Source: Verrucomicrobiota bacterium
GTDB taxonomy: Bacteria > Verrucomicrobiota > Verrucomicrobiia > Chthoniobacterales > UBA6821
Assembly (NCBI GenBank): GCA_008932965.1
Contig: WBXG01000005.1
Span: forward strand, 1 to 32,000
Direction: 5' to 3'
Length of the DNA stretch: 32,000 bases
The notes beneath the pieces are model-generated. The model made no database searches and was not told where the DNA came from. It saw nothing but the letters and a program-made list of their open reading frames with translations. Shown here one piece after another: positions 7,650-32,000 of the stretch. Position 1 is the stretch's first letter. The number at the start of each line of letters is the position of its first letter. A program made the translations under genes and the position numbers.

Positions 7650-8249
7650 ATGACACTACCTAATCAAATTACTCTTGGTCGGATTTTACTGATTCCCATT
7701 TTTGTGCTCTTAGCTGTCTATTATGGACATAGTGTTGAAGCAGGGGAACCTGAAGAAAAATTACGTATTGCTGCTATTATTGTTTTTTTAGTCGCAGCGC
7801 TTAGCGATGGGGTTGATGGATGGTTAGCACGTCACTTTCGTCTTCAATCTCGCTTAGGGGCTATTCTGGATCCCATTGCTGATAAAGGATTGATGCTAAC
7901 TGCGATCATTACACTGAGTGTGAGTAATTGGGATCGGTCATTACCACTTTGGTTTCCAGTCTTAGTGATTACTCGCGATATCATTATTTTAACCGGATGT
8001 GCTCTGCTTCGTTTTCTCAATGGTTCTCTGGAAATTCGTCCCAGCTCTCTTGGAAAAATTTCTACTTTTTTTCAGATGTTTGCAATCGCAGTGGTATTGC
8101 TGCAGTGGCGTTATTACAGCATTATTGTTGGAATAGCTGGTATTGTTACCTTGCTCAGTGGTATCGGATATATAATCGATGGTGTTCGACTTTTAAAATT
8201 AGGGGGTCATGATAGGCCGACATCGGGAGATGTAATGGGTAATGGGTAA
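7650..8249 (+). CDS. pgsA: CDP-diacylglycerol--glycerol-3-phosphate 3-phosphatidyltransferase (CDP-alcohol phosphatidyltransferase family)
   Basis: Contains the motif DGVDGWLARHFRLQSRLGAILDPIADK. I chose the ATG at 7650 (MTLPNQITLGRILLIP), because the ORF-track start at 7503 lies inside repeat copy D. The last 5 codons and the stop are encoded by the heptamer array. Confidence 0.85.
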   Translation: MTLPNQITLGRILLIPIFVLLAVYYGHSVEAGEPEEKLRIAAIIVFLVAALSDGVDGWLARHFRLQSRLGAILDPIADKGLMLTAIITLSVSNWDRSLPLWFPVLVITRDIIILTGCALLRFLNGSLEIRPSSLGKISTFFQMFAIAVVLLQWRYYSIIVGIAGIVTLLSGIGYIIDGVRLLKLGGHDRPTSGDVMGNG

Positions 8250-8315
8250 TGGGTAATGGGTGGTGAGTGGTGAGTGGTGAGTGGTGAGTAAGGGGTAATG
8301 AGTGATGAGTGATGG
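8232..8315 (+). repeat. Heptanucleotide tandem array 1 (12 units, G-rich on the + strand)
   Basis: Counted by hand: gtaatgg x4, gtggtga x4, then gtaaggg, gtaatga, gtgatga, gtgatgg. Units are reverse complements of units in array 2. Confidence 0.95.
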
Positions 8316-8410
8316 GTTCTAAAGAGCACTATTCATTATCGAACGTAATGTTGAGAAGAGGATTACTCTCAGTACAAATTTCGAAATTTAATTTCATTTC
8401 GATTCTAAAA

Positions 8411-8641
8411 TTACTCCTTACCCATTACCCATCACCCATCACCCATCACCCATCACCCATCACCCATCACCCATCACCCATTACTCCTTACTCCTTACTC
8501 CTTACTCCTTACTCCTTACTCCTTACTCCTTACTCCTTACCCATTACCCATTACCCATTACCCATTACCCATTACCCATTACTCATTACTCATTACTCAT
8601 TACTCATTACTCATTACTCATTACTCATTACTCATTACTCA
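8411..8641 (+). repeat. Heptanucleotide tandem array 2 (33 units in homogeneous blocks, C-rich on the + strand)
   Basis: Counted by hand: ttactcc x1, ttaccca x2, tcaccca x7, ttactcc x8, ttaccca x6, ttactca x9. The array ends 10 nt before the der ATG. Confidence 0.95.
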
Positions 8642-8651
8642 TTCCTTTTTT

Positions 8652-10100
8652 ATGTATCGTGTAGCCATTGTTGGCCGACCTAACGTCGGCAAATCCTCTC
8701 TCTTTAATCGTCTTCTGGGTAGACGTCTTTCTATTGTTCATGACCAACCTGGGGTTACCCGTGACCGGCTTGCAGCAGTGTGTGAAAAAGGAGATATCCC
8801 TTTTGAAATTATCGATACAGGCGGGATTGGAGATGCACCTGACCCTGATTTTGCCGAGGCTACTCATGCCGCAGCCATGGCAGCAATTCAATCTGCAGAC
8901 CTACTTCTCTTTGTGGTTGATGGTCGTGCTGGGGTGACTCCGCTAGATCAAGAATTAGCTCAGCAACTACGTCGAACCGATCGCCCGCTTCTCCTCATTG
9001 TTAATAAAATCGATGAAAAAATGCACGAGTCATTTGTAAGTGATTTTTATGAGCTCGGTTTTGATCAGATTTTAAGCGTGAGTGCAGCCCATGGTGTGGG
9101 ACTGCATCATTTAATGGAGTCTATTGAAAAACATCTTGGGGTATGTGACGAAAAACAATCTCTAGTAAAAGAGGCGATTCCAAAACTTGCTATTGTAGGA
9201 CGCCCTAATGTTGGTAAATCTTCTTTGCTTAACACCATTCTTGGAGAGGAGCGAACTATTGTAAGTCCTATTTCTGGCACAACACGGGATGCTATTGATA
9301 TTCGATGTGACTTAAAAGGGGTTCCCTATTTACTGGTCGATACAGCAGGACTGAGGCATCGATCCAAGCCTGATACCTCAGTGGAGATTTTTAGTGCAAT
9401 GCGAACCCAGGAGGCCTTGCGCCGTGCTGATGTTGGTATTCTTGTTCTTGATGCTACCGTTGATATTACAGCTCAAGATAAACGTATTGCCGGAATACTT
9501 CAGGAATCTTTTAAACCTTGCCTAATTGTTGCCAACAAATGGGATCTTGTTCATAAAGAGGATGGTGGTCGTGCCTCCCAAGGTGAATACGCAGCGATGA
9601 TCCGAAGTGAATTATTTTTTCTCGATTATGCACCGATTATTTGTCTGTCCGCTAAAACCGGTCAGGAAGTAGGACGTCTACTCACCGCCCTTGAAGAAGT
9701 GAGAAAAGCTGCAGAGGTCCGTATCACTACAGGAGAGCTTAATCGATTTTTTAAGGCAGTATGGGAACATCAGCCACCTCCATCACGTGGAGGACGTCGT
9801 TTTAAGCTGCTGTATGCAACTCAGGTTGCTCCCGAAGTGCGCCCTCCATTTCATGCTCCAGAATTTTTGCTCTTCGTCAACGATGCAAAATTAATGACCG
9901 ACTCCTATCATAAGTACCTTCTTCATGCACTTCGCTCGGAGTGGCCTTTTTCAGGACTTCCCATTCGACTGCGTCTTCAGGGAAGGCTCTCTCGCGAAGA
10001 GCAAGATCGCAAGGCTGAAGGAAATGAGCAGCATATTCGAACAAAAATAGAACCGTATGTACTAAAGAGGAATGAAAAAGGAAACCGCTTAGGGGGGTAG
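8652..10100 (+). CDS. der: Ribosome-associated GTPase Der (EngA), two tandem GTPase domains plus a KH-like domain
   Basis: Two G1 motifs, GRPNVGKSSLFN and GRPNVGKSSLLN, each followed by DTGG/DTAG and NKxD motifs. Confidence 0.92.
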   Translation: MYRVAIVGRPNVGKSSLFNRLLGRRLSIVHDQPGVTRDRLAAVCEKGDIPFEIIDTGGIGDAPDPDFAEATHAAAMAAIQSADLLLFVVDGRAGVTPLDQELAQQLRRTDRPLLLIVNKIDEKMHESFVSDFYELGFDQILSVSAAHGVGLHHLMESIEKHLGVCDEKQSLVKEAIPKLAIVGRPNVGKSSLLNTILGEERTIVSPISGTTRDAIDIRCDLKGVPYLLVDTAGLRHRSKPDTSVEIFSAMRTQEALRRADVGILVLDATVDITAQDKRIAGILQESFKPCLIVANKWDLVHKEDGGRASQGEYAAMIRSELFFLDYAPIICLSAKTGQEVGRLLTALEEVRKAAEVRITTGELNRFFKAVWEHQPPPSRGGRRFKLLYATQVAPEVRPPFHAPEFLLFVNDAKLMTDSYHKYLLHALRSEWPFSGLPIRLRLQGRLSREEQDRKAEGNEQHIRTKIEPYVLKRNEKGNRLGG

Positions 10101-18937: not shown

Positions 18938-19375
18938 ATGAAGAAAATATTATTACTGCTATGCCTCCTCGGCGCTCTGACTTTTATGCCTGCTAGGGTC
19001 ATGGCCCACTGTCAAATTCCCTGTGGTATTTTTCATGATGGTCTTATTTTTGAAACATTAGAGCAAAACATAGAGACCCTACAAAAAGCCGATCATGAGC
19101 TCAGTGACTCATCTCTTTCTAACAATCAATCGGTGCGTTGGATCTTAAATAAAGAAGCCCAATCTGATCAGATCGCGCAGACAATGTTGACCTATTTTTT
19201 ACAACAACGTATTAAGCTAGATGATCCCAAACGCGCTGAAAAATTAGACCTTATTTCCAAAATTGTGATGCAATGCACCAAAGTAAAACAAACCACAGAT
19301 GCTAAGGAGGTTTTCACTCTTGGTGATGAAATTCAACAACTCAAAGGACTTTCTGGTGTTGTTTTAGCAAAATAG
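18938..19375 (+). CDS. sodN: Nickel superoxide dismutase precursor with a Sec-type signal peptide
   Basis: The Ni-hook HCQIPCG (consensus HCxxPCG) follows a 23-aa leader, MKKILLLLCLLGALTFMPARVMA. The mature length of about 122 aa fits NiSOD. Confidence 0.8.
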   Translation: MKKILLLLCLLGALTFMPARVMAHCQIPCGIFHDGLIFETLEQNIETLQKADHELSDSSLSNNQSVRWILNKEAQSDQIAQTMLTYFLQQRIKLDDPKRAEKLDLISKIVMQCTKVKQTTDAKEVFTLGDEIQQLKGLSGVVLAK

Positions 19376-21246: not shown

Positions 21247-22146
21247 TTACGGCAGCAGTTCAATAATGCAGTGAACTTGATTCTGTGATAATTCAGCAAT
21301 CTGAGCAATTTGTTCCAAGGGTAAACCAGAGCGATGCATACTGATCACAAATCTTTTTTTCTCCTCTTCTTTTCCTTTAGCCTCACCTTGAGCAAGCCCT
21401 TTAGCCTCACCTTGAGCAAGCCCTTGAGCAAGCCCTTCTTTGTACTTGCCACTGAACAGAGTTCTTTCAGAGCTCACTGCATCCCAGCTTTTATCGTAGG
21501 CAAGTAATTCAGCTTCGCTGTAGGAAGCGATTTCTAGAAGAGAGATGGCCTCTTTGATCGAATCTACTTCCAAAAAACTGGGATCGACAACTTCTGTTTT
21601 TTCGTTGATCTCTTTTAAAAAACGGAGCCAAAGAACAGTAGCTCTTTTTGTGGTGATGCTGGTTGGTTTGAACTTAGGAAGTTCAATAAGGACCAATTGA
21701 ATATCTTCTAAACTCTTGCTTTCATCATGAGCATTGGTCATTCGGTAATGATGAAACCACTCTTGTTCTTGAGAAAAAGTGGTATCTAGTAACGCCACTC
21801 CATAGACAGGGCTGAGGTGTTCATAGCTTTTCCCTTTCTTTAATTGCCGAGCATAGGTTGTAGCTGTGTTGAAAAGCATTCTCTTGATAAAATCACTCGT
21901 CCATTGCAATTGCATTTCTACGATGAAGTGACGTCCGTGATTGTCAAAGCAACGCACATCAACAATAGAATATTTTAACGCAGTAATTTCAGGAACACTC
22001 TCCGAAGGCAAGTAGATCAAACTCTCAATGACGCAATCTGGAGGCAACGGCAAAATAGCATTGAGAAAATCTTGGAGTACATTGGGATGGTGACCAAAAA
22101 TTTTCTTAAAGACTAAATCACTCTTAGGGTCCAGGTAGCGTGGCAT
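21247..22146 (-). CDS. Rpn-family recombination-promoting nuclease / PD-(D/E)XK putative transposase
   Basis: The N-terminus MPRYLDPKSDLVFKKIFGHHPNVLQDFLNAIL is characteristic of the Rpn/YhgA-like family. It has an internal low-complexity GLAQGEAKG repeat. Confidence 0.8.
   Translation of the reverse strand: MPRYLDPKSDLVFKKIFGHHPNVLQDFLNAILPLPPDCVIESLIYLPSESVPEITALKYSIVDVRCFDNHGRHFIVEMQLQWTSDFIKRMLFNTATTYARQLKKGKSYEHLSPVYGVALLDTTFSQEQEWFHHYRMTNAHDESKSLEDIQLVLIELPKFKPTSITTKRATVLWLRFLKEINEKTEVVDPSFLEVDSIKEAISLLEIASYSEAELLAYDKSWDAVSSERTLFSGKYKEGLAQGLAQGEAKGLAQGEAKGKEEEKKRFVISMHRSGLPLEQIAQIAELSQNQVHCIIELLP
21374..21433. repeat. 24-bp tandem repeat (2.5 units) inside the Rpn-like gene
   Basis: cctttagcctcaccttgagcaagc occurs at 21374-21397 and 21398-21421, followed by the half unit ccttgagcaagc. 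It encodes GLAQGLAQGEAKGLAQGEAKG. Confidence 0.9.
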
Positions 22147-22220: not shown

Positions 22221-24218
22221 TCATAAGTTCTTCACTCGGAAAATATGCGCTGGGTGTGTGAGTGGATTGAGAGAGATAAAATTATGAGTTCCTTTCCACT
22301 CATAGCATTCCCCGGTGAGAAGATCTTCGACACAATAAGGACTTTCATAAGGAATTCCTAGCCGATGGAGAGGGATTTCTACCGTTGCTGCTTGCTGCTG
22401 GTGAGGATCTAGATTGACCATAATCAAGAGATGGTTTGTGTTATCTTCCGAAGATCTTAAATAAGCAATAATAGCATTATTATTACTATGGCAAAATTGA
22501 AGCTGATGGGTGTTTTGAAGGGCACTGTTAGAGTTGCGAATCTGATTTAAACGAGTAATCCAAGGTTTGATATTGCCAGGAGCATTCCAATCACGTTCCT
22601 TAAATTGATATTTTTCTGAATCAGCATACTCCTCCTTGCCAGGCAGAGCAGCATTTTCACAAAGTTCAAAACCACTATAAATTCCATAAATCGAAGAGAG
22701 GGTGGCTGCCAAAGCAGCTCTAATAAGGAAAGCAGAACGTCCCCCCTCTTGAAGATAGAAAGGGAGAATATCAGGAGTGTTGGGGAAAAGATTAGGGCGA
22801 AAATATTCTTTCATTTCCGAGTGAGTAAGTTCGGTAAAGTAATTTTCTAGCTCTTCTTTGGTATTACGCCAGGTGAAGTAACTATAACTTTGCGTAAACC
22901 CAATCTTTGCGAGTTTTTTCATCATCGCTGGGTGGGTAAAAGCTTCACTCAAAAAAATGACATCAGGATACTTTTCCTGAACCTCTGCAATGACCCATTG
23001 CCAAAAAGTAACTGGCTTGGTATGGGGATTGTCGACACGGAATATGCGCACTCCACGCTCCGCCCAAATAAGAAAGATGCCTAATAGCTCCTTCCAGAGT
23101 TCTTTCCACCTTGTGTTATAAAAATTGAGAGGAAAAACATCCTCATATTTTTTGGGAGGATTTTCGGCATATTTTATCGATCCATCTGGCCGATGATAGA
23201 ACCATTCAGGATATTGTTGAACATAGGGATGATCTGGAGAACAGTTGAGTGCAAAATCCAAAGCTACTTCCATATTGCGTTCACGGACTTGAGCGATAAG
23301 CCATTGAAAATCCTCGATTGTTCCCAAAAGTGGTTCTATTGAATCATGTCCTCCTGTTACTGCGCCAATCGCATAAGGAACACCAGGATCTTCTGGTAGA
23401 CATTCTAAAGAATTGTTCCTCCCTTTTCGTCCAGTAAGACCAATAGGATGAATAGGGGGGAAGTAGATAACATGAAAGCCCATTGCTTTGGCATCATCGA
23501 TGCGTGCAAGAGCTTCACGAAAGTTAGACCCCGATTCTTTTTTTCCCTCTGCTGAACGAGGAAAAAATTCATACCATGCCCCAAAAGCTGCTCGCAGACG
23601 GTCTACTCGAACTTGTTGAAAGGGCTCGAATAATGTCGAAAAAGAACGATCAGGATAGCGATGCATCAAAAAAAGCAGTCGCTCCGTTTTTAAAAAATCT
23701 TTCAAAGAGTAAAGGGAAGATTTTTTTTCTAATTCAATAGCAAAGTTTATGAGCTCTTGTTGTTCTGCATTATCTTTAGATCGCTGAGCCGCTGCATGAA
23801 TCAGGATTGCTCCTTCTTGTGCTTCTAGATGAAGATCCTCAATACCAGCCTCAATCTTTTTTTTAACCTCTTGCAACCAGGAATCAAAGGGATCTCCCCA
23901 TGCTTCGATCGTATATTCAGTGAATCCCACAGAGGTTACTTGAAACGAGCCTTGAAACCGATGGTTCTCAAGAAGTTTCATCGGTATTTCTTGCCACAGG
24001 GATTGATTTTTAGAATTTCTATTTTCAGTTTCAGTTGATTTTGAATGGCTGCTCTTAGCGCGCCATTTCAAAAGAGCACGCACAGCATCATGCCCCTCTT
24101 TGAAGATGGTAGCCTCTATTACGACTGATTGACCAGGAACACGTTTGATTGGAAATTGGCCCCCTTCGATAGAGGGAGAGAGATCTTCAATAGTGATGCT
24201 TGGGAAAGGAGAGCCCAT
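22221..24218 (-). CDS. glgE: Alpha-1,4-glucan:maltose-1-phosphate maltosyltransferase (GlgE)
   Basis: GlgE-type N-terminus ITIEDLSPSIEGGQFPIKRVPGQSVVIEATIFKEGHDAV plus a GH13 catalytic core (FRVDNPHTKP, FLSEAF). Start uncertain: I chose the ATG at 24218, and the alternatives (ATG 24272, TTG 24293) overlap the kinase gene. Confidence 0.88.
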   Translation of the reverse strand: MGSPFPSITIEDLSPSIEGGQFPIKRVPGQSVVIEATIFKEGHDAVRALLKWRAKSSHSKSTETENRNSKNQSLWQEIPMKLLENHRFQGSFQVTSVGFTEYTIEAWGDPFDSWLQEVKKKIEAGIEDLHLEAQEGAILIHAAAQRSKDNAEQQELINFAIELEKKSSLYSLKDFLKTERLLFLMHRYPDRSFSTLFEPFQQVRVDRLRAAFGAWYEFFPRSAEGKKESGSNFREALARIDDAKAMGFHVIYFPPIHPIGLTGRKGRNNSLECLPEDPGVPYAIGAVTGGHDSIEPLLGTIEDFQWLIAQVRERNMEVALDFALNCSPDHPYVQQYPEWFYHRPDGSIKYAENPPKKYEDVFPLNFYNTRWKELWKELLGIFLIWAERGVRIFRVDNPHTKPVTFWQWVIAEVQEKYPDVIFLSEAFTHPAMMKKLAKIGFTQSYSYFTWRNTKEELENYFTELTHSEMKEYFRPNLFPNTPDILPFYLQEGGRSAFLIRAALAATLSSIYGIYSGFELCENAALPGKEEYADSEKYQFKERDWNAPGNIKPWITRLNQIRNSNSALQNTHQLQFCHSNNNAIIAYLRSSEDNTNHLLIMVNLDPHQQQAATVEIPLHRLGIPYESPYCVEDLLTGECYEWKGTHNFISLNPLTHPAHIFRVKNL

Positions 24219-24234
24219 GAGGTGGAGTTGGAAT

Positions 24235-25320
24235 TTAAAATTGGAGTTTGGATAAAAAACTTGAAAACTCATTCCAATGACTCTCTGGTTCAAGCTGAGT
24301 TAACGCATGTCTGAGCCCCTTGAGAGCCGATGGAACATGCTCAAGAAAATGGGATTTTCCTCGATCGAGTCCTAAAAAACCGTAACAGCCAAGAGCCTGC
24401 ATCAAGCGTTGAAGTGCACAGCACCAAAAAATCTTTTCAATATCATAGGAAAAAACAAATTGGTGTTTTTTCATTTCTTGCTGATAAAAGTCGAGCAATT
24501 CTTGTCTCTCCAATGCAGTAAGTGTGACATAAGGATCACATAGTAGAGAAGCAAGGTCATAAGGGGCTAGTCCAGCTCGCATTCCTTGAAAGTCAATCAA
24601 TCCAACCTGATTTCCAAAGAGAAGAATATTTTGAGATTGAAAATCACGATGAATGAGTTGTCGAGGCAGGGAGGCAAGTTGATTTGAGAGAGTTTCAAAG
24701 GGGTGGGTAGAAAGGAGTTTATTTCTTATTTTTGGATCAACCTTAAAAAGAGAACCCAAGGCATGTTCAAAAAAATAATGTTGCTCCCAACGATAGAGTT
24801 CTTGTTCAAATGCTGGTTGCAATGTGACTTCCTCTTTTGCTTTTTCAAGTGAAATTCGATGTAATCGTGCTGCCTCGATCAGGCTCTTTTCATACCATGG
24901 GCGGCGCTCTTCCCATGAAGCCTCACGCATACTCCATAGATTTTTTTTACCAAGGTCTTGAAGCCACAACAGGCATTCTTGCTCAGAATAATTCATGACT
25001 GAGGGAACAGAAATACCTTGTTTTCTTAAAAAAAAAGCGTGCTCTGCATAAGAACTATTTTCTGATTTTTCTCTGTTGTAGTGAACCAGGATAAGAGAGT
25101 CTCCAGAAGTATTGATACAACGGTAAAATTCCCGATCAGAACCCCCTTCATAAATAGAAAGGAGAGTGGCTTGTTCAAACTGAGGAAAACGTTCGCTCGT
25201 TTTCCTCAAAAGCTGGTCATGCGTCATCATTGCATGATTATGAGTACTTTTGGACTGAAACGCAATTTCTTCGAAATCAGTTTTTAACTCTTTTTGTAAA
25301 AAGAAGCGGTAGAAACTCAA
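24235..25320 (-). CDS. APH-fold sugar kinase, AmgK-like anomeric kinase pattern; candidate non-canonical maltokinase
   Basis: 361-aa ORF with GGSDREFYR near the N-terminus, the catalytic loop HRDFQSQNILL, the metal-binding IDFQGMRAG, then APYDLASLLCDPY. It sits between glgX (21-nt gap) and glgE (16-nt gap or overlap). Confidence 0.7.
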   Translation of the reverse strand: MSFYRFFLQKELKTDFEEIAFQSKSTHNHAMMTHDQLLRKTSERFPQFEQATLLSIYEGGSDREFYRCINTSGDSLILVHYNREKSENSSYAEHAFFLRKQGISVPSVMNYSEQECLLWLQDLGKKNLWSMREASWEERRPWYEKSLIEAARLHRISLEKAKEEVTLQPAFEQELYRWEQHYFFEHALGSLFKVDPKIRNKLLSTHPFETLSNQLASLPRQLIHRDFQSQNILLFGNQVGLIDFQGMRAGLAPYDLASLLCDPYVTLTALERQELLDFYQQEMKKHQFVFSYDIEKIFWCCALQRLMQALGCYGFLGLDRGKSHFLEHVPSALKGLRHALTQLEPESHWNEFSSFLSKLQF

Positions 25321-25341
25321 TAGCTCTGTTCAAATAGGAAA

Positions 25342-27696
25342 TTAATTTTCCATTTTTGAAACTAAAATCACAACAGAGCGTGATTCTACTAAGTAACTTT
25401 CCGCATTGATGGAAGGGGCTTCTTTCCAAGGGAGGATGTCCTGAGGCGATTCCTTAAAAGTATCAATACAACAACGCCAGGGTGTGTAGAAATTAGTGCA
25501 CAAGGGAATTTCAAATTCTAGAGATTTCCAAAAAGAATTGATCATGATATGAATCATCACTTTGTGATCATAATTACGCATTGTTGCAGCTAAGGCGTGT
25601 GAATCTGCACCTAGGTCAGGAGCATTGAGTTTGACACCATGCCACTCAATGGCTTTTTCGATAAGAAGTTCTCTCAATGTTTGAGCATAGGTGTCACAAA
25701 GATGACTGCGGTCTAAACGAAAATTAATGAGTTGCCGTGTGAATCGATGGATATCGGCATGTTTCTTGAGGAGGGACCAGTCAAAGGATCCGATATCACC
25801 TGCATGACAGTAGGCATTGTTATTTCCTTGTTGAGTACGTCTCACCTCATCACCAGCTAAAATCATTGGTGTTCCTACAGAGAAAAAAAGTATTGTTAAA
25901 AAATTTTTAATTTGTCGATTGCGTAATTTTTCAATTTCAGAATCCTCCGTAGGCCCCTCCATTCCGCAATTCCAGCTGCAATTGAAATTAGATCCATCGC
26001 GGTTGTTTTCTTGATTAGCTTCATTATGCTTTTCATTATAGCTCACCAGATCATTGAGAGTAAAACCATCGTGACAGGTAATAAAATTGACGCTCTGTTC
26101 AGGGTTTCTCTCTTCATTTTCATAAATATCTGGGCTCCCTGTCATGCGGTAAGCAAGAGATCTAATAGTATTATTATCTCCTTTAATAAAAGAGCGAACA
26201 TCATCACGAAAATGTCCATTCCACTCATTCCAGGAATCTCCAGGAAAATGTCCCACTTGGTACAGTCCGGCAGCATCCCATGCCTCTGCAAATAACTTAA
26301 TGTTTGCTAGTACAGGATCGGATTCGATATCCCAGATAGTAGGAGGATGAGCCATGGGAGTTCCTGATTCATCACGAGAGAGAATAGAGGCTAGATCAAA
26401 ACGAAAACCATCGATATGCATCTCATCAACCCAATAACGAAGAGAGTCAAGAATGAGACGACGCACAATAGATTCATTAGCGTTGAAGGTATTTCCACAA
26501 CCACTAAAGTCAGCATAGGTTGCTTTATCTTTTCCTAAAATATAGTAGGTTTCATTGCCAAGTCCACGGAAAGAGAGTGTAGGGCCATGAAGGCCTCCTT
26601 CCGTAGTGTGATTAAAAACGACATCGAGAATTACTTCAATGTTTGCACGATGCAGTGCTTTGACCATGGAACGAAATTCATCTAATACGGCTAATGGCTC
26701 TTTTTTTGAGGAATACTGAGGATGCGGTGCAAAAAAAGCATAGGGTTGATAGCCCCATATATTAGAAAGGCCATCGGGTGCGTCTTCCGGGTCAAAGGCA
26801 AAGATCGGGAGTAATTCCACAGCAGTGATTCCAAGCTCTTTTAAATAGGGGATTTTTTCAATAACTCCAGCATAGGTACCTCTTTTTTCAGGAGAGAGAC
26901 CAGAATTAGGATTGCTAGTGAATGTCCCAATATTCATTTCGTAAATAACTGTTTTACATAAAGGATGGCGCAAAGGCAAATCACCCTCCCAATCGTAAGA
27001 TTTAGAATGAACAACTACATTTTTTATCGCAGTAACACAATTATCCCCTGGTGCTGCAGCAGCTTTACGGGAACGAGAAGAAGGGAGAGCTATACATTTT
27101 CCATAAGGATCAAGTAATACTTTTTCAGAGTCAAAGCGAAGTCCCTCCTTGCTATTAAAGGGACCATACATACGCCAAGCATAAATTTGGCCCTCTTTCA
27201 GACCAGGTACAAAAACATGCCAATAATGATAAGATCTATTTTGCTGGGTTGTAAGTGGAATCACTTTCGAGGGCTTGGTATCCTCAATATGATCAAAAAG
27301 CAGCAACTCCGCCTGCTTTGCATGTTTTGAAAAGATGCTAAAGTTAACGCCATGCTTAAATACAGTGGCTCCAAGTGGAAAACTTCTCCCCGTCTCCTTG
27401 CCAAATGCTGCTCTTGAAACTAATCCAGATATTTCATGCTCATCACCTACAACAATTGGGGAGCCAGATGGATGCTGCGATGAGCTCAAAGTAGTGCTCT
27501 GGCAGTGTATGCTTGCACCTAGGTCGTCAGACTTCATCACATATCCTGACCCATCAGGCTTCGCAGCCTCCTCGTCACGATCAGTATGAAATATCTCAGT
27601 GAGCTGGGAGGACTCCATGTTTACCTCCTTGGGTTTATTCAAGGACTGAGCGCTAGGAGCTGCTCCAGGGATATTCTTTGTGGTAAGATCTGTCAT
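25342..27696 (-). CDS. glgX: Glycogen debranching enzyme GlgX with a repeat-derived N-terminal extension
   Basis: GH13 debranching core beginning FPLGATVFKHGVNFSIFSKHAKQAELLLFD at about residue 105, with GFRFDLAS and EAWD motifs. About 100 extra N-terminal residues include a translated copy of the MITE-like repeat. An alternative start is the ATG at 27537, inside the repeat. Confidence 0.88.
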   Translation of the reverse strand: MTDLTTKNIPGAAPSAQSLNKPKEVNMESSQLTEIFHTDRDEEAAKPDGSGYVMKSDDLGASIHCQSTTLSSSQHPSGSPIVVGDEHEISGLVSRAAFGKETGRSFPLGATVFKHGVNFSIFSKHAKQAELLLFDHIEDTKPSKVIPLTTQQNRSYHYWHVFVPGLKEGQIYAWRMYGPFNSKEGLRFDSEKVLLDPYGKCIALPSSRSRKAAAAPGDNCVTAIKNVVVHSKSYDWEGDLPLRHPLCKTVIYEMNIGTFTSNPNSGLSPEKRGTYAGVIEKIPYLKELGITAVELLPIFAFDPEDAPDGLSNIWGYQPYAFFAPHPQYSSKKEPLAVLDEFRSMVKALHRANIEVILDVVFNHTTEGGLHGPTLSFRGLGNETYYILGKDKATYADFSGCGNTFNANESIVRRLILDSLRYWVDEMHIDGFRFDLASILSRDESGTPMAHPPTIWDIESDPVLANIKLFAEAWDAAGLYQVGHFPGDSWNEWNGHFRDDVRSFIKGDNNTIRSLAYRMTGSPDIYENEERNPEQSVNFITCHDGFTLNDLVSYNEKHNEANQENNRDGSNFNCSWNCGMEGPTEDSEIEKLRNRQIKNFLTILFFSVGTPMILAGDEVRRTQQGNNNAYCHAGDIGSFDWSLLKKHADIHRFTRQLINFRLDRSHLCDTYAQTLRELLIEKAIEWHGVKLNAPDLGADSHALAATMRNYDHKVMIHIMINSFWKSLEFEIPLCTNFYTPWRCCIDTFKESPQDILPWKEAPSINAESYLVESRSVVILVSKMEN
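27421..27601 (+). mobile_element. MITE-like repeat family, copy E (181 bp, diverged), embedded antisense in the glgX reading frame
   Basis: The left end taatccagatatttcat, the internal block ccagatggatgctgcg, and ggcttcgcagcctcctcgtcacgatcagtatgaaatat align with copies A, B and D at the same spacing. Confidence 0.8.
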
Positions 27697-27784: not shown

Positions 27785-28939
27785 TTAGGAGATAGCATCA
27801 ACTTTACTGAGGCGACGTAGATGTCTCTCTGCATGACTGTAGTTACTCTGAAGAAAGGTTTGAACGAGATCCCAAGCGACCTCTAGTCCCATTGTTCTTC
27901 CTCCCATACAAAGAAGATTGATATGATCATCTTCAACTCCCTGCTTGGCGGAAAAGTGATCTTCAATAAGTGCTGCTCGAACTCCTTGGATTTTGTTAGC
28001 ACAGACAGTCACTCCAACCCCACTTCCGCATATGGCAATACCTCGAGCGACTGTTCCCTTGGAAACAGCATGCGATAATGGAATGATGTAGTCAGGATAA
28101 TCATCTTCAGGAACGAGTGTAGGAGCACCAAAATCAGTAACGTGATATCCTAGAAATTGAAGTCGTTTTACTAACGCCTCCTTGAGCTCAAAACCACCGT
28201 GATCTGAAGCGATACCTATGGTGAGTGGATGTTCTTTCCATAGGGAGAGATCTAGGGAGCCTAAAGCTGTAGTATCCGCAAATAGAGTTGCTTGATTTTG
28301 CTGGACTACCCCGCCTGGAATAGAGGCATCACGATTTAAAAGATGACACAAAGCTCCTGTTTTTTCTTTTCCTGTAACAACCCAGAGAATTTTTCTAGCA
28401 CGATTAATGACGGGGTATGTTAATGTCATACGCTGATGATTTTGATAAACTCCTGTAATGGCTACCTCTCGATCAACAACATCTAAAACGGAATCTCCAG
28501 GAATGAGTGAAGCAGTATGACCATCTGGTCCAAGTCCAAGATGAATTAAATCCAAAAGGATTGGAGAACCTGTAATATTCTCTAAAAGATGAGTATATTG
28601 TTGGGTTGCAGCCTCAATGTGCTTCTCCTCAACAGGCATTGCAATTATTTGCTCAGGTGGCAATGGAGCGTGACTTAGGAGACTTTCTTGAAGGTGAGTT
28701 AAATTTCGATCTGCTGATCCGCTCGGAGCGATACGTTCATCTACTTGAAAAATATAAACATTTTCCCATGGGATCTCCTCTTGAGCAAGCATGCGCAGCA
28801 TGATCCAGGGAGTTTTACCACCACTCACTGCCATTACAAAACGACCCCGTTCTGCAACCGCTGCCCGAGCTGTAGCAGCTATAAAACAAGCTGCTTCTCG
28901 AGCCACAGAAGTCTCATCAGGAAAAATTTCAATATTCAT
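27785..28939 (-). CDS. Fusion protein: 6-phosphogluconolactonase (N-terminal) and ribose-5-phosphate isomerase B (C-terminal)
   Basis: The N-terminal half has AVSGGKTP, FQVDERIAP and GLGPDGHTASL (Pgl/DevB type). The C-terminal roughly 145 aa has IGIASDHGGFELK and CGSGVGVTVCANK (RpiB/LacAB type). It is a single uninterrupted 384-aa ORF. Confidence 0.85.
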   Translation of the reverse strand: MNIEIFPDETSVAREAACFIAATARAAVAERGRFVMAVSGGKTPWIMLRMLAQEEIPWENVYIFQVDERIAPSGSADRNLTHLQESLLSHAPLPPEQIIAMPVEEKHIEAATQQYTHLLENITGSPILLDLIHLGLGPDGHTASLIPGDSVLDVVDREVAITGVYQNHQRMTLTYPVINRARKILWVVTGKEKTGALCHLLNRDASIPGGVVQQNQATLFADTTALGSLDLSLWKEHPLTIGIASDHGGFELKEALVKRLQFLGYHVTDFGAPTLVPEDDYPDYIIPLSHAVSKGTVARGIAICGSGVGVTVCANKIQGVRAALIEDHFSAKQGVEDDHINLLCMGGRTMGLEVAWDLVQTFLQSNYSHAERHLRRLSKVDAIS

Positions 28940-29033: not shown

Positions 29034-30404
29034 CTACTGAGGATTATGCCATCCTCCTTTTGGAAGAAGGTGCAAGTCTGTTTCTTGAGGGCCCCAAGTA
29101 TGAATTTCATACTGATAAATCGGGGTGCTAGCTTTGATGATCGGGTCAACAATACGCCAAGCTTCCTCGACATAGTCTTCACGAGCAAAAAGAGTTGGGT
29201 CGCCTGCGAGAGCATCTGTTAACACGCGCTCGTAAGCAGTCATTTCAATAGAATCTGGTTGATGAGTTGTGATGAGTTCAACAGAACGGCTTTCTGTTTC
29301 ATTATCAGGGTTCACAGCATTCATCCCCATGCCAATAATGACTTCCGGGCTAATACGAATACGAATATGATTTTGTCTTACTTGGTAGTTCGTATAAAAG
29401 GGAGTGCTTGGCTTTAATCTAATAAAGATTTCAGTGCATTCTACTGGAAGATTCTTGCCAGCTCTCAAAAAGATAGGGACTCCTTGCCAACGTGGAGAAT
29501 TCACCTCAAGTTGAAGAGCTGCGAATGTTTCTGTTTGAGAGCCACCAACAACACCTGGTTCTTGGAGATAGCCTTGAAATTGACCTCGTATGATATTTTT
29601 CTCTGAGAGTGGGGGTATTGCTTGGAGCACTTTTACCTTTTCATCTCTAATAGATTCACTGTCGAGACCTTGAGGCTGCTCCATAAGAATGTTGGTTAAT
29701 AACTGGAAAAGATGATTTTCCATGACGTCACGGACGGTTCCAGTTTTATCATAAAAACTTCCCCTTCCTTGAACTCCAAAATCTTCTGCCATTGTGATCT
29801 GAATGCTTTCTATATGATCACTACTCCAAAGAGCTTCAGGGATCATATTTGTAAATCGGAAAAAAAGCATGTTATGTACAACCGGTTTTCCCAAATAATG
29901 ATCAATCCTAAAAATGCGTGATTCATCAAAGACATTGAGTAAAATAGCATTTAATTTTTTCGCTGATTCTAGATCCGTGCCAAAGGGTTTCTCAATAACA
30001 ACACGTGCATTTGCTCCAGCACATCCGGAGGAACTGAGCTTTTCGACAACAAGTCCAAAAAGAAGAGGAGGAATAGCTAAATAGTGAGCTGGATGGGTTG
30101 AGGTGCCAAGTTCTTGGCGTAGTAAATCATAGGTGGAATCATCATTGTAATCTCCATCTACGTAGCGTAGGAGATTTGAGAGTTTTTTCCATGCATCAGG
30201 ATCAAGACCTCCATGTTTCTCAAGACTATCCTGAGCCCGTGCTTTGAGTTGATCTAGATTCCATCCTGCTTTGGCAACTCCAATAATAGGGATGTCAAGA
30301 TGGCCTCGCTTGACCATTGCTTGTAGTGATGGGAATATTTTTTTATAAGCGAGATCACCAGTCGCACCAAAAAAAACAAGGGCATCAGAAGAGTGGTTTT
30401 TCAT
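29034..30404 (-). CDS. zwf: Glucose-6-phosphate 1-dehydrogenase
   Basis: 456-aa ORF with FGATGDLAYKKIFPSL (NADP site), the active-site motif RIDHYLGKP and EKPFG. Confidence 0.93.
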   Translation of the reverse strand: MKNHSSDALVFFGATGDLAYKKIFPSLQAMVKRGHLDIPIIGVAKAGWNLDQLKARAQDSLEKHGGLDPDAWKKLSNLLRYVDGDYNDDSTYDLLRQELGTSTHPAHYLAIPPLLFGLVVEKLSSSGCAGANARVVIEKPFGTDLESAKKLNAILLNVFDESRIFRIDHYLGKPVVHNMLFFRFTNMIPEALWSSDHIESIQITMAEDFGVQGRGSFYDKTGTVRDVMENHLFQLLTNILMEQPQGLDSESIRDEKVKVLQAIPPLSEKNIIRGQFQGYLQEPGVVGGSQTETFAALQLEVNSPRWQGVPIFLRAGKNLPVECTEIFIRLKPSTPFYTNYQVRQNHIRIRISPEVIIGMGMNAVNPDNETESRSVELITTHQPDSIEMTAYERVLTDALAGDPTLFAREDYVEEAWRIVDPIIKASTPIYQYEIHTWGPQETDLHLLPKGGWHNPQ

Positions 30405-30488: not shown

Positions 30489-31535
30489 TTAATCCTTTTT
30501 TTCAAGATGTCCTCCGAAGCCAAAGCGCATCGCAGAGAGGATTTTATTTTGGAATTCAGCTTCACCACGTGAGCTAAAACGGGCATAGAGTGCTGTTGTA
30601 AGGACAGGTGCTGGTGTTCCTTCATCGATTGCAGCCTTAATTGTCCAGCGTCCTTCTCCAGAGTCAGAAACACGACCTGCAAATTTACTGAGTGCTGGAT
30701 CTTGAGCAAAAGCATTTGCAGTGAGGTCAAGTAACCATGAAGCAATAACGCTTCCACGACGCCATACCTCGGATATTTCAGGAAGATCCATATCGTACTG
30801 ATAATGCTCTGGATCACGAAGTGGAGTTGTCTCAGCATCGATATCATGAGTCTTCTTTCCAATATCAGAATTTTTAATGATACTAAGTCCCTCTGCATAG
30901 GCTGCCATGATGGCATACTCGATACCGTTATGAACCATTTTTACAAAATGGCCTGCTCCATTAGGTCCACAATGGAGATATCCATTTTCTGCGGTTCCTT
31001 TATTAGGAGGACGCCCCTCCGTCCGTGGAATCGTTCCAATACCAGGAGCTAATGTTTCGAAGATAGGGTCAAGATATTGAACGGAATTTTTCTCTCCACC
31101 AATCATCATGCAGTAACCACGTTCGAGTCCCCAGACTCCACCGCTTGTCCCGACATCAACATAATGAATATTTTTTGCAGCAAGCTCTTTAGCACGTCGT
31201 ATATCATCGATATAATAGGAGTTACCACCATCAATAATAATATCATCTTTGCTTAAATGAGGTACGAGTTCAGCAATGGTTTCATCAACAACTGCTGCAG
31301 GAACCATGAGCCAAATGGCACGAGGAGTTGTTAACTTGGAAACCATGTCACTTAGCGATGTGGAGCCAATTGCCCCTTCTTTTTCTAAGATAGTCACATT
31401 CTCCTGGGACTGATCAAAGGCAATGCAATGATGCCCCTCCTTCATAAGACGTCGAACCATGTTAGCGCCCATACGACCAAGACCAACCATTCCAAGTTGC
31501 ATTGCTTTAGGATTATTCATAATTTGAGATTTCAA
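30489..31535 (-). CDS. gnd: 6-phosphogluconate dehydrogenase, decarboxylating (short-form, Gnd-like)
   Basis: Contains [19 protein letters not shown] (Rossmann fold), [16 protein letters not shown], and a short C-terminus typical of the 300-350 aa form. Start uncertain: TTG 31535, ATG 31520 or ATG 31502. Confidence 0.88.
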
Positions 31536-31543
31536 GGTTAAGG

Positions 31544-32000
31544 TTAAAAGTTTTGGGAAGAAGAAAGTTGTTTCATTGCTGCTGCAATACCAAGAGGAGA
31601 TTTAAAAATAGAAGTTCCAGCCACAAAAACAGTTGCTCCTGCTTTTTCAGCAAGTGAAATAGTTGAAGCATCAATACCTCCATCAACTTCTAATTCACAT
31701 TCTGGATTATTCAGTGCAATCATCTTCTCAATGAGTCCAATTTTCTTTAATGTAAGCTGCAAGAAGTGCTGGCTTCCAAAGCCAGGATTAACAGTCATTA
31801 CTAAGACAAGATCTAGTTCTGGTAAGATTTCCTCGAGAACACAAGCAGGAGTTGCAGGGTTAATTGCTACTCCAATTTTTTTACCAATCTGTTTAGCTTT
31901 TTGGACTGTCCTATGTAAATTATTGTTTCCTTCATAATGAACAATAAAGCTGCTAGCCCCAGCTTGAGCAAATTCTTCCATAAAGAAATCAGGGTTAGTG
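31544..32000 (-). CDS. rpe: Ribulose-phosphate 3-epimerase (partial; N-terminus lies beyond the window end)
   Basis: Contains [15 protein letters not shown] and LEVDGGI, with a C-terminal VAGTSIF. The ORF stays open to the window edge. Confidence 0.88.

Follow-up and report, generated by a model that had tools for sequence, protein, structure and literature searches.

In Pseudomonas and other Gram-negative bacteria, AmgK and MurU provide a shortcut for the salvage of peptidoglycan sugars, in which AmgK is the N-acetylmuramate/N-acetylglucosamine 1-kinase. Mak/Pep2 (EC 2.7.1.175), the maltokinase of the TreS-Mak-GlgE pathway, is a kinase of the protein-kinase-like/APH superfamily, and in the canonical cluster the genes of TreS-Mak and GlgB adjoin glgE (PMC7935935). 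Operons of this glgE-treS/mak-glgB type are found on the Rhizobium plasmid pRetKim5c, in Chlamydiae and in Pseudomonas. Exploring positions 1 to 32,000 of contig WBXG01000005.1 from a Verrucomicrobiota bacterium of the order Chthoniobacterales (assembly GCA_008932965.1; this whole stretch of 32,000 nt is called the window below), we found a gene for a small APH-fold kinase between glgX, encoding a glycogen debranching enzyme, and glgE, encoding an alpha-1,4-glucan:maltose-1-phosphate maltosyltransferase. All three are on the minus strand. An earlier reading of the letters alone (the original prediction) had described this module, and matches to hidden Markov models (HMMs) including those of Pfam bear it out. 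Comparison with related loci leads us to favor, with a probability of about 0.6, the reading that the kinase is an AmgK-type anomeric sugar 1-kinase, in its Chthoniobacterales version, whose synteny with a true glgE is inherited and whose other neighbour, glgX, is newly juxtaposed.

The maximal open reading frame (ORF) of the kinase starts with TTG at 25320 and encodes 361 aa (24235-25320, minus strand; Pfam APH, E = 4e-18), which is the length originally proposed. Given that about 120 homologues begin at the position of its M31, however, the protein is most likely 331 aa long and starts at the ATG at 25230 (24235-25230). The proposed gaps of 21 nt to glgX and 16 nt to the ATG of glgE at 24218 are correct for the maximal ORFs, but with the likely start at M31 the distance to glgX grows to 111 nt. 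Reading of the sequence and a promoter/terminator scan showed no terminator-like site in the 16 nt that separate the kinase stop from the start of glgE (24219-24234), nor in the interval between glgX and the kinase, the counts being at or below those of shuffled sequence.

To place the kinase, we compared it with protein families, solved structures and predicted folds. Its best NCBIfam matches were two AmgK models, NF045759 (69.6 bits, cutoff 550) and NF045698 (38.5 bits, cutoff 500); as both are top matches and both remain far under their cutoffs, the kinase is AmgK-like and not a certified equivalog. The only significant solved relative detected by sequence (phmmer, E <= 1) was 3CSV, an AmgK-like structural-genomics protein (E = 2e-16). 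The AlphaFold model (pLDDT 95.4) opens directly with the kinase N-lobe and likewise matches 3CSV best in Foldseek (TM 0.77-0.79), while other matches listed include the APH-superfamily kinases PsiK, homoserine kinase, APH(2'') and methylthioribose kinase. Like AmgK, the window kinase has the APH fold, about 330 aa and no extra domain, and it carries the HRDFxxxN catalytic loop (HRDxxxxN) and the DFQ metal-binding motif. With 3CSV it shares the C-terminal motifs YDLxSLLxD and QRxMxxxG, but the two are only ~20-27% identical. The kinase motifs quoted in the original prediction are all present in the translation. Named homologues come from Chthoniobacterales/Verrucomicrobia, and some of them are called N-acetylmuramate 1-kinase by JGI. 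An origin from Chlamydiae, which the GC content and the Rpn-type gene downstream of glgE had initially hinted at, was rejected in view of these named homologues.

The maltokinase models gave the opposite picture. The window kinase had no match to the maltokinase HMM TIGR02457 (TreS_Cterm) at E <= 0.01 and no Pfam match to the Mak_N_cap domain (PF18085); phmmer at E <= 1 returned none of the solved maltokinases (4U94, 4O7O, 5JY7), and no maltokinase was among the 50 Foldseek matches listed for the model. As a positive control we used the canonical cluster of Rhizobium plasmid pRetKim5c, whose TreS-Mak scored 520.3 bits with TIGR02457, matched Mak_N_cap as well, and whose Mak domain found the solved maltokinases at 1e-43. 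Aligned with this control Mak domain, the window kinase matched only around the catalytic loop and the metal-binding motif (24.6 bits). The two kinases have in common the superfamily, the glgE neighbourhood and, as far as the family of the window kinase predicts, the anomeric phosphorylation chemistry. They differ in that the window protein reads HRDFQSQN and IDFQG where the true Mak domain has HGDFHLGQ and IDFEGEP, is 331 aa long without the N-terminal cap domain whereas Mak has ~450 aa, and has no TreS partner nearby. Judged by its HMM matches, its similarity to solved structures and its predicted fold, the kinase is AmgK-like rather than Mak-like, as the original prediction had already sensed from the motifs.

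The genes that accompany the kinase were examined in ~170 related loci, among them 80 genome loci and loci from metagenomes. Directly upstream and on the same strand, ~68 of the 80 genome loci, and most metagenome loci too, carry a gene for a GMPP/MurU-like NTP_transferase of ~315-340 aa that combines an NTP_transferase domain with a GMPPB_C/LbH domain. Its best NCBIfam match is a mannose-1-phosphate guanylyltransferase model (134 bits) followed by MurU (103 bits), and its relatives in the PDB are GDP-mannose pyrophosphorylases and P. putida MurU. The kinase family thus resembles AmgK/MurU in being paired with an NTP_transferase that has MurU as best or second-best HMM match. It differs from that system in that the transferase is a long form with the LbH/GMPPB_C domain, in many cases joined to the N-terminus of the kinase, and in gene order, which is transferase, then kinase, and then glgE in Chthoniobacterales. 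The window locus itself is without the transferase: a tblastn search with the relatives' transferase gave no match anywhere in its 32 kb, and the loci of its own clade do not have the gene either. The original remark that no MurU-like partner is adjacent is therefore right for the window and wrong for the family.

The fused forms came to light when 1.84 billion cluster representatives were searched exhaustively, which returned 454 relatives of the kinase at E <= 1e-30. Among the best 150 representatives, about 45 were proteins of 546-672 aa, and one more had 901 aa. In seven of ten long proteins scanned an NTP_transferase domain lies N-terminal to the APH kinase, with an LbH segment detectable between them in some, and in the two fusions scanned with NCBIfam the top match was MurU for the N-terminal half and AmgK for the C-terminal half. 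Such fusions are also found beside glgE in Verrucomicrobia (L094 and L175); in L175, a sister lineage that shares 61% identity with the window kinase in its kinase part, a GNAT gene, the fusion, an Rpn-type gene and glgE follow each other in this order. Fusion with a nucleotidyltransferase is a classic sign of consecutive steps, first to a sugar-1-phosphate and then to a nucleoside diphosphate (NDP)-sugar. Together, the fusions and the near-universal pairing imply that the product of the kinase is the precursor of an NDP-sugar.

A metagenome scan seeded with the fusions brought up more loci of the Chthoniobacterales type and a distant group with kinases 34-41% identical to that of the window; the source names of these distant fused loci are Syntrophales/Thermodesulfobacteriota. 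In 17 of the ~28 distant loci the kinase gene is immediately preceded, on its own strand, by a SpoIID/LytB gene, a gene for an AmpG-family muropeptide transporter, or both. The SpoIID/LytB assignment reached 173.7 bits with TIGR02669 against a cutoff of 83.3, and in L106 the stop of ampG overlaps the start of the fusion. This AmpG/SpoIID context, which the fused forms have in common with AmgK/MurU as regards AmpG, points to cell-wall sugars. The cluster of spoIID/lytB, ampG and the MurU-like::AmgK-like fusion is conserved in the Syntrophales/Thermodesulfobacteriota metagenome contigs L105-L136 (for example L106, 895-5275), and it looks like a compact module for muropeptide import and salvage of N-acetylmuramic acid (MurNAc).

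On the reading that we favor, kinases of this family would form a sugar-alpha-1-phosphate, which the MurU/GMPP-like nucleotidyltransferase, encoded directly upstream or fused, would convert to an NDP-sugar. The sugar itself, if the analogy with AmgK/MurU applies, would most probably be MurNAc or N-acetylglucosamine salvaged from the cell wall. In Chthoniobacterales the transferase-kinase pair would form, with glgE, an old and tightly packed gene string. In the clade of the window the transferase would have gone from the locus, leaving the kinase and glgE behind glgX and genes of the pentose-phosphate pathway.

Since glgE is central to any alternative, we examined the two glycogen enzymes. The glgE gene (665 aa from the ATG at 24218; 22221-24218, minus strand; maximal ORF 22221-24293) is also called at 665 aa in the 96%-identical locus L081. 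Its product has the Pfam domains GlgE_dom_N_S and GLGE_C and matches S. coelicolor GlgE (3ZSS) over its full length (E = 1.2e-182) and M. tuberculosis GlgE at E = 6e-156. In the alignment with 3ZSS the segments RVDNPH, (L/S)EAF, NTPDIL and PPKKY are identical; following published structure work on S. coelicolor GlgE, we take them to hold the catalytic Asp, Glu and Asp and the Lys and Tyr of the phosphate site. By sequence, the window gene is a true GlgE (GH13_3), and the conservation of these donor-site segments indicates that it should need maltose-1-phosphate. GlgX (784 aa; 25342-27696, minus strand; Pfam CBM_48 and Alpha-amylase) reached the equivalog cutoff of TIGR02100 glgX_debranch (678.9 against 640.9 bits), and the related loci L081, L084, L085 and L176 likewise have glgX ahead of their kinase gene. 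The window GlgX carries ~100 extra N-terminal residues, the TIGR02100 model beginning at residue 103, and is 784 aa long compared with 695 aa in L085. As in the canonical operons, then, the clade of the window has a true GlgE clustered with a glycogen gene, in this case glgX; unlike those operons, Chthoniobacterales loci are without TreS-Mak and GlgB within ~10 kb.

Three arrangements recur among the relatives. In the first, transferase, kinase and glgE follow each other, as in L001-L007 and L087; in the second, found in a large Udaeobacter-type clade, the transferase-kinase pair is followed by a gene for a metallo-beta-lactamase (MBL)-fold protein and prc, with no glgE; in the third, kinase and glgE stand together without the transferase. 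The clade of the window, with kinases 58-96% identical to the window's, belongs to the third, and in its loci pgi-rpe-gnd-zwf-pgl/rpiB-glgX precedes kinase-glgE. Carriers of a window-type locus include the metagenome-assembled genomes GCA_027452685.1 and GCA_049314455.1 and the assembly with MDH4470584.1; GCA_964724675.1 is of the fused type. Sorted by context, 44 loci have transferase-kinase without glgE, 15 have transferase-kinase-glgE, 3 have transferase-kinase with glgE nearby, 5 have kinase-glgE only and 4 have glgX-kinase-glgE. In the Udaeobacter-type genomes the transferase-kinase pair is intact and glgE is located elsewhere. There (L089-L092) the lone glgE is flanked by the gene of a SufR-like regulator and by exbB-exbD-TPR genes, and no further gene of glycogen or trehalose metabolism occurs within 10 kb. 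Two loci of the window clade have ORFs inserted between glgX and the kinase, one of 709 aa and coiled-coil-like in L176 (6814-8943) and one of 190 aa in L084 (7310-7882). They gave no informative family or structure match, and we rejected the idea that they are remnants of the transferase, TreS or Mak.

In neighbour-joining trees, with either midpoint rooting or the AmpG-linked fusion as root, the transferase-kinase-glgE lineages were basal and scattered, and the clade of the window fell within the transferase-kinase-glgE and fused lineages, next to L087 and the fused L175. These are unbootstrapped distance trees and give a coarse placement only. The order transferase-kinase-glgE appears to be ancestral in Chthoniobacterales. 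The simplest history that the sequences suggest is that one large clade lost glgE from the locus and that the transferase disappeared from it at least four times, once in the ancestor of the window clade, which appears to have gained glgX upstream of the kinase. Given inherited synteny around a true GlgE, the glgX-kinase-glgE layout cannot be taken as evidence for a supply of GlgE by the kinase. The kinase sequences are conservative as well: transferase-linked kinases have 84 alignment columns with a conservation of at least 95%, and 82 of these are unchanged in the window clade, with D to N/T and A to S as the exceptions. The other lineages without the transferase depart at two different positions and have no change in common with the window clade. 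We also considered neofunctionalisation of the transferase-less kinases, which is unsupported, the window clade having only two conservative changes, none of them convergent.

A number of observations nevertheless weigh against an AmgK-type role. As to family, the kinase is far under the AmgK equivalog cutoff (69.6 against 550 bits) and the partner transferase is under that of MurU (103 against 250 bits). The transferase has a C-terminal LbH/GMPPB_C domain that is absent from P. putida MurU, and it is about as similar to GDP-mannose pyrophosphorylases as to MurU. The AmpG/SpoIID context, in turn, was seen in the Deltaproteobacteria-type relatives only, with none in the Verrucomicrobia loci or in the window. 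As to position, the kinase directly adjoins glgE on the same strand in ~35 loci, an unusually persistent link; the gap between them is 11-34 nt in loci of the window clade; the stop of the L087 kinase, like that of the L094 transferase-kinase fusion, overlaps the glgE start; and in at least four lineages kinase and glgE remained a pair when the locus lost its transferase. Finally, tblastn found no TreS, Mak or GlgB in the window and the ~170 loci (~2 Mb of flanking sequence), the only matches being weak GH13 ones on glgX. The first part of this negative had been anticipated in the original prediction, which noted a module without TreS, and the neighbourhood check that it suggested shows the kinase conserved next to glgE in related genomes. 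The kinase-glgE link is real across a bacterial order; being tight and old and having survived rearrangements, it is more than a one-off accident.

These points of position are what would be expected if the AmgK-like kinase phosphorylated maltose at C1 and supplied the adjacent GlgE, in place of a maltokinase with a cap domain, either in all Chthoniobacterales or at least in the window clade, whose loci have no transferase. The pairing with glgE is tight and conserved, with overlapping stop and start codons, and outlasted both the loss of the transferase and the move behind glgX. The GlgE donor site is conserved and should need maltose-1-phosphate, and neither TreS nor Mak nor GlgB is near any of the ~40 glgE loci or within ~10 kb in any Chthoniobacterales locus. 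To our knowledge, the APH-fold sugar kinases AmgK, NahK, Mak and MtnK all act on the anomeric hydroxyl. A 2024 review gives only two routes to maltose-1-phosphate, TreS-Pep2 and GlgC-GlgM (PMC11046441). Against this stands the pairing and fusion of the kinase with a nucleotidyltransferase, as an NDP-sugar is of no use to GlgE. The cell-wall context of the distant relatives, the unchanged conserved positions in the window clade and the unlinking of glgE from the transferase-kinase pair in the large Udaeobacter-type clade also speak against it. Moreover, the similarity to Mak is confined to the catalytic loop and the DFx segment (24.6 bits), and a canonical TreS-Mak or GlgM may be encoded elsewhere in the genome. 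We consider this explanation unlikely. Somewhat broader versions, in which the kinase doubles as, or has become, the maltose-1-phosphate former for a co-transcribed GlgE, or in which the string links sugar-1-phosphate salvage to alpha-glucan synthesis, also appear rather doubtful to us. The original prediction that a kinase of another subfamily had been recruited as maltose-1-phosphate supplier is unsupported on four counts: the nucleotidyltransferase partner and fusions, the spoIID-ampG context, the unchanged positions and the unlinked glgE of Udaeobacter. If the kinase did supply GlgE, maltose-1-phosphate would have a third source in addition to TreS-Mak and GlgC-GlgM.

The persistence of the three-gene string also invites the idea that transferase, kinase and GlgE form one undescribed pathway, in which the kinase would act on a glucan-derived sugar other than maltose. 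Through the kinase and the transferase, free glucose or a malto-oligosaccharide released by GlgX, for example, could feed the pools of glucose-1-phosphate and NDP-glucose for the synthesis of maltose-1-phosphate or trehalose. The string is ancestral and often translationally coupled, the transferase resembles LbH-containing GDP-mannose/NDP-glucose pyrophosphorylases as much as MurU, and in the window clade the pair is set among the carbohydrate genes pgi, rpe, gnd, zwf, pgl-rpiB and glgX. However, no enzyme of the GlgM, GlgA or OtsA type, which would link an NDP-sugar to maltose-1-phosphate, was found in any locus, the AmpG/SpoIID context of the relatives points to amino sugars, and the window-clade locus, being without the transferase, breaks the logic of three steps. 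As the idea is also purely inferential, we regard it as improbable.

Neither the 32-kb window nor any locus of the window clade has the transferase, which could finally mean that the kinase of this clade is a decaying or idle remnant, carried along by co-transcription with glgE. Its ORF, however, is intact across kinases that are 58-96% identical, and the 82 of 84 family-conserved positions kept include the HRDxxxxN and DFQ catalytic motifs, indicating purifying selection on the window-clade kinase. The transferase may also be encoded elsewhere. A remnant is in our view very improbable.

Given an AmgK-type kinase in inherited synteny, the window gene should not be annotated as a maltokinase on the basis of its position, and its family would follow the logic of sugar to sugar-1-phosphate to NDP-sugar, as in the salvage of cell-wall sugars. 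A limited literature search returned no description of a murU-like/amgK-like/glgE string; a search on Chthoniobacter with trehalose synthase and glycogen returned nothing, and the GlgE papers and the 2024 review describe no AmgK-like route. The string, sometimes fused and with overlapping codons, is kept across an abundant soil and freshwater order and merits the attention of specialists. A second point for them is the source of maltose-1-phosphate for the GlgE of Chthoniobacterales, a question directly testable on existing metagenome-assembled genomes.

The three genes are part of a longer row on the minus strand of the window, which in the order of transcription consists of rpe (3' part, 31544-31981), gnd (30489-31535), zwf (29034-30404), a pgl-rpiB fusion (27785-28939), glgX, the kinase, glgE, an Rpn-type PD-(D/E)XK gene, a GNAT gene and pdxJ. 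The pentose-phosphate gene order upstream of glgX is repeated, with its Pfam labels, in the relatives L085 and L176. The pgl-rpiB fusion (Pfam Glucosamine_iso and LacAB_rpiB) joins 6-phosphogluconolactonase and ribose-5-phosphate isomerase B in one protein of 384 aa and is kept between zwf and glgX in L084, L085 and L176. Directly downstream of glgE, the Rpn-type gene (21247-22146, minus strand; Pfam PDDEXK_2, E = 3.6e-44) has matching genes in L081 and L083, while L084 and L085 have none at that site; L175 carries a PDDEXK_2 gene that separates the transferase-kinase fusion from glgE. This patchy presence suggests a mobile element that repeatedly landed beside glgE, and the Rpn-type gene is probably a mobile insertion.

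Two further observations concern other parts of the window. Just upstream of der/engA, heptanucleotide tandem repeats occupy 8232-8314 and 8410-8643; they include an ATTACTC array of ~33 copies with 95% match and, close by, shorter arrays of GTAATGG, GTGGTGA and ATGAGTG, and they create a spurious repetitive ORF at 8309-8683. A small ORF at 18938-19375 encodes an N-terminal HCxxPCGxF motif typical of nickel superoxide dismutase, and the gene at the matching position in L081 is labelled Sod_Ni.

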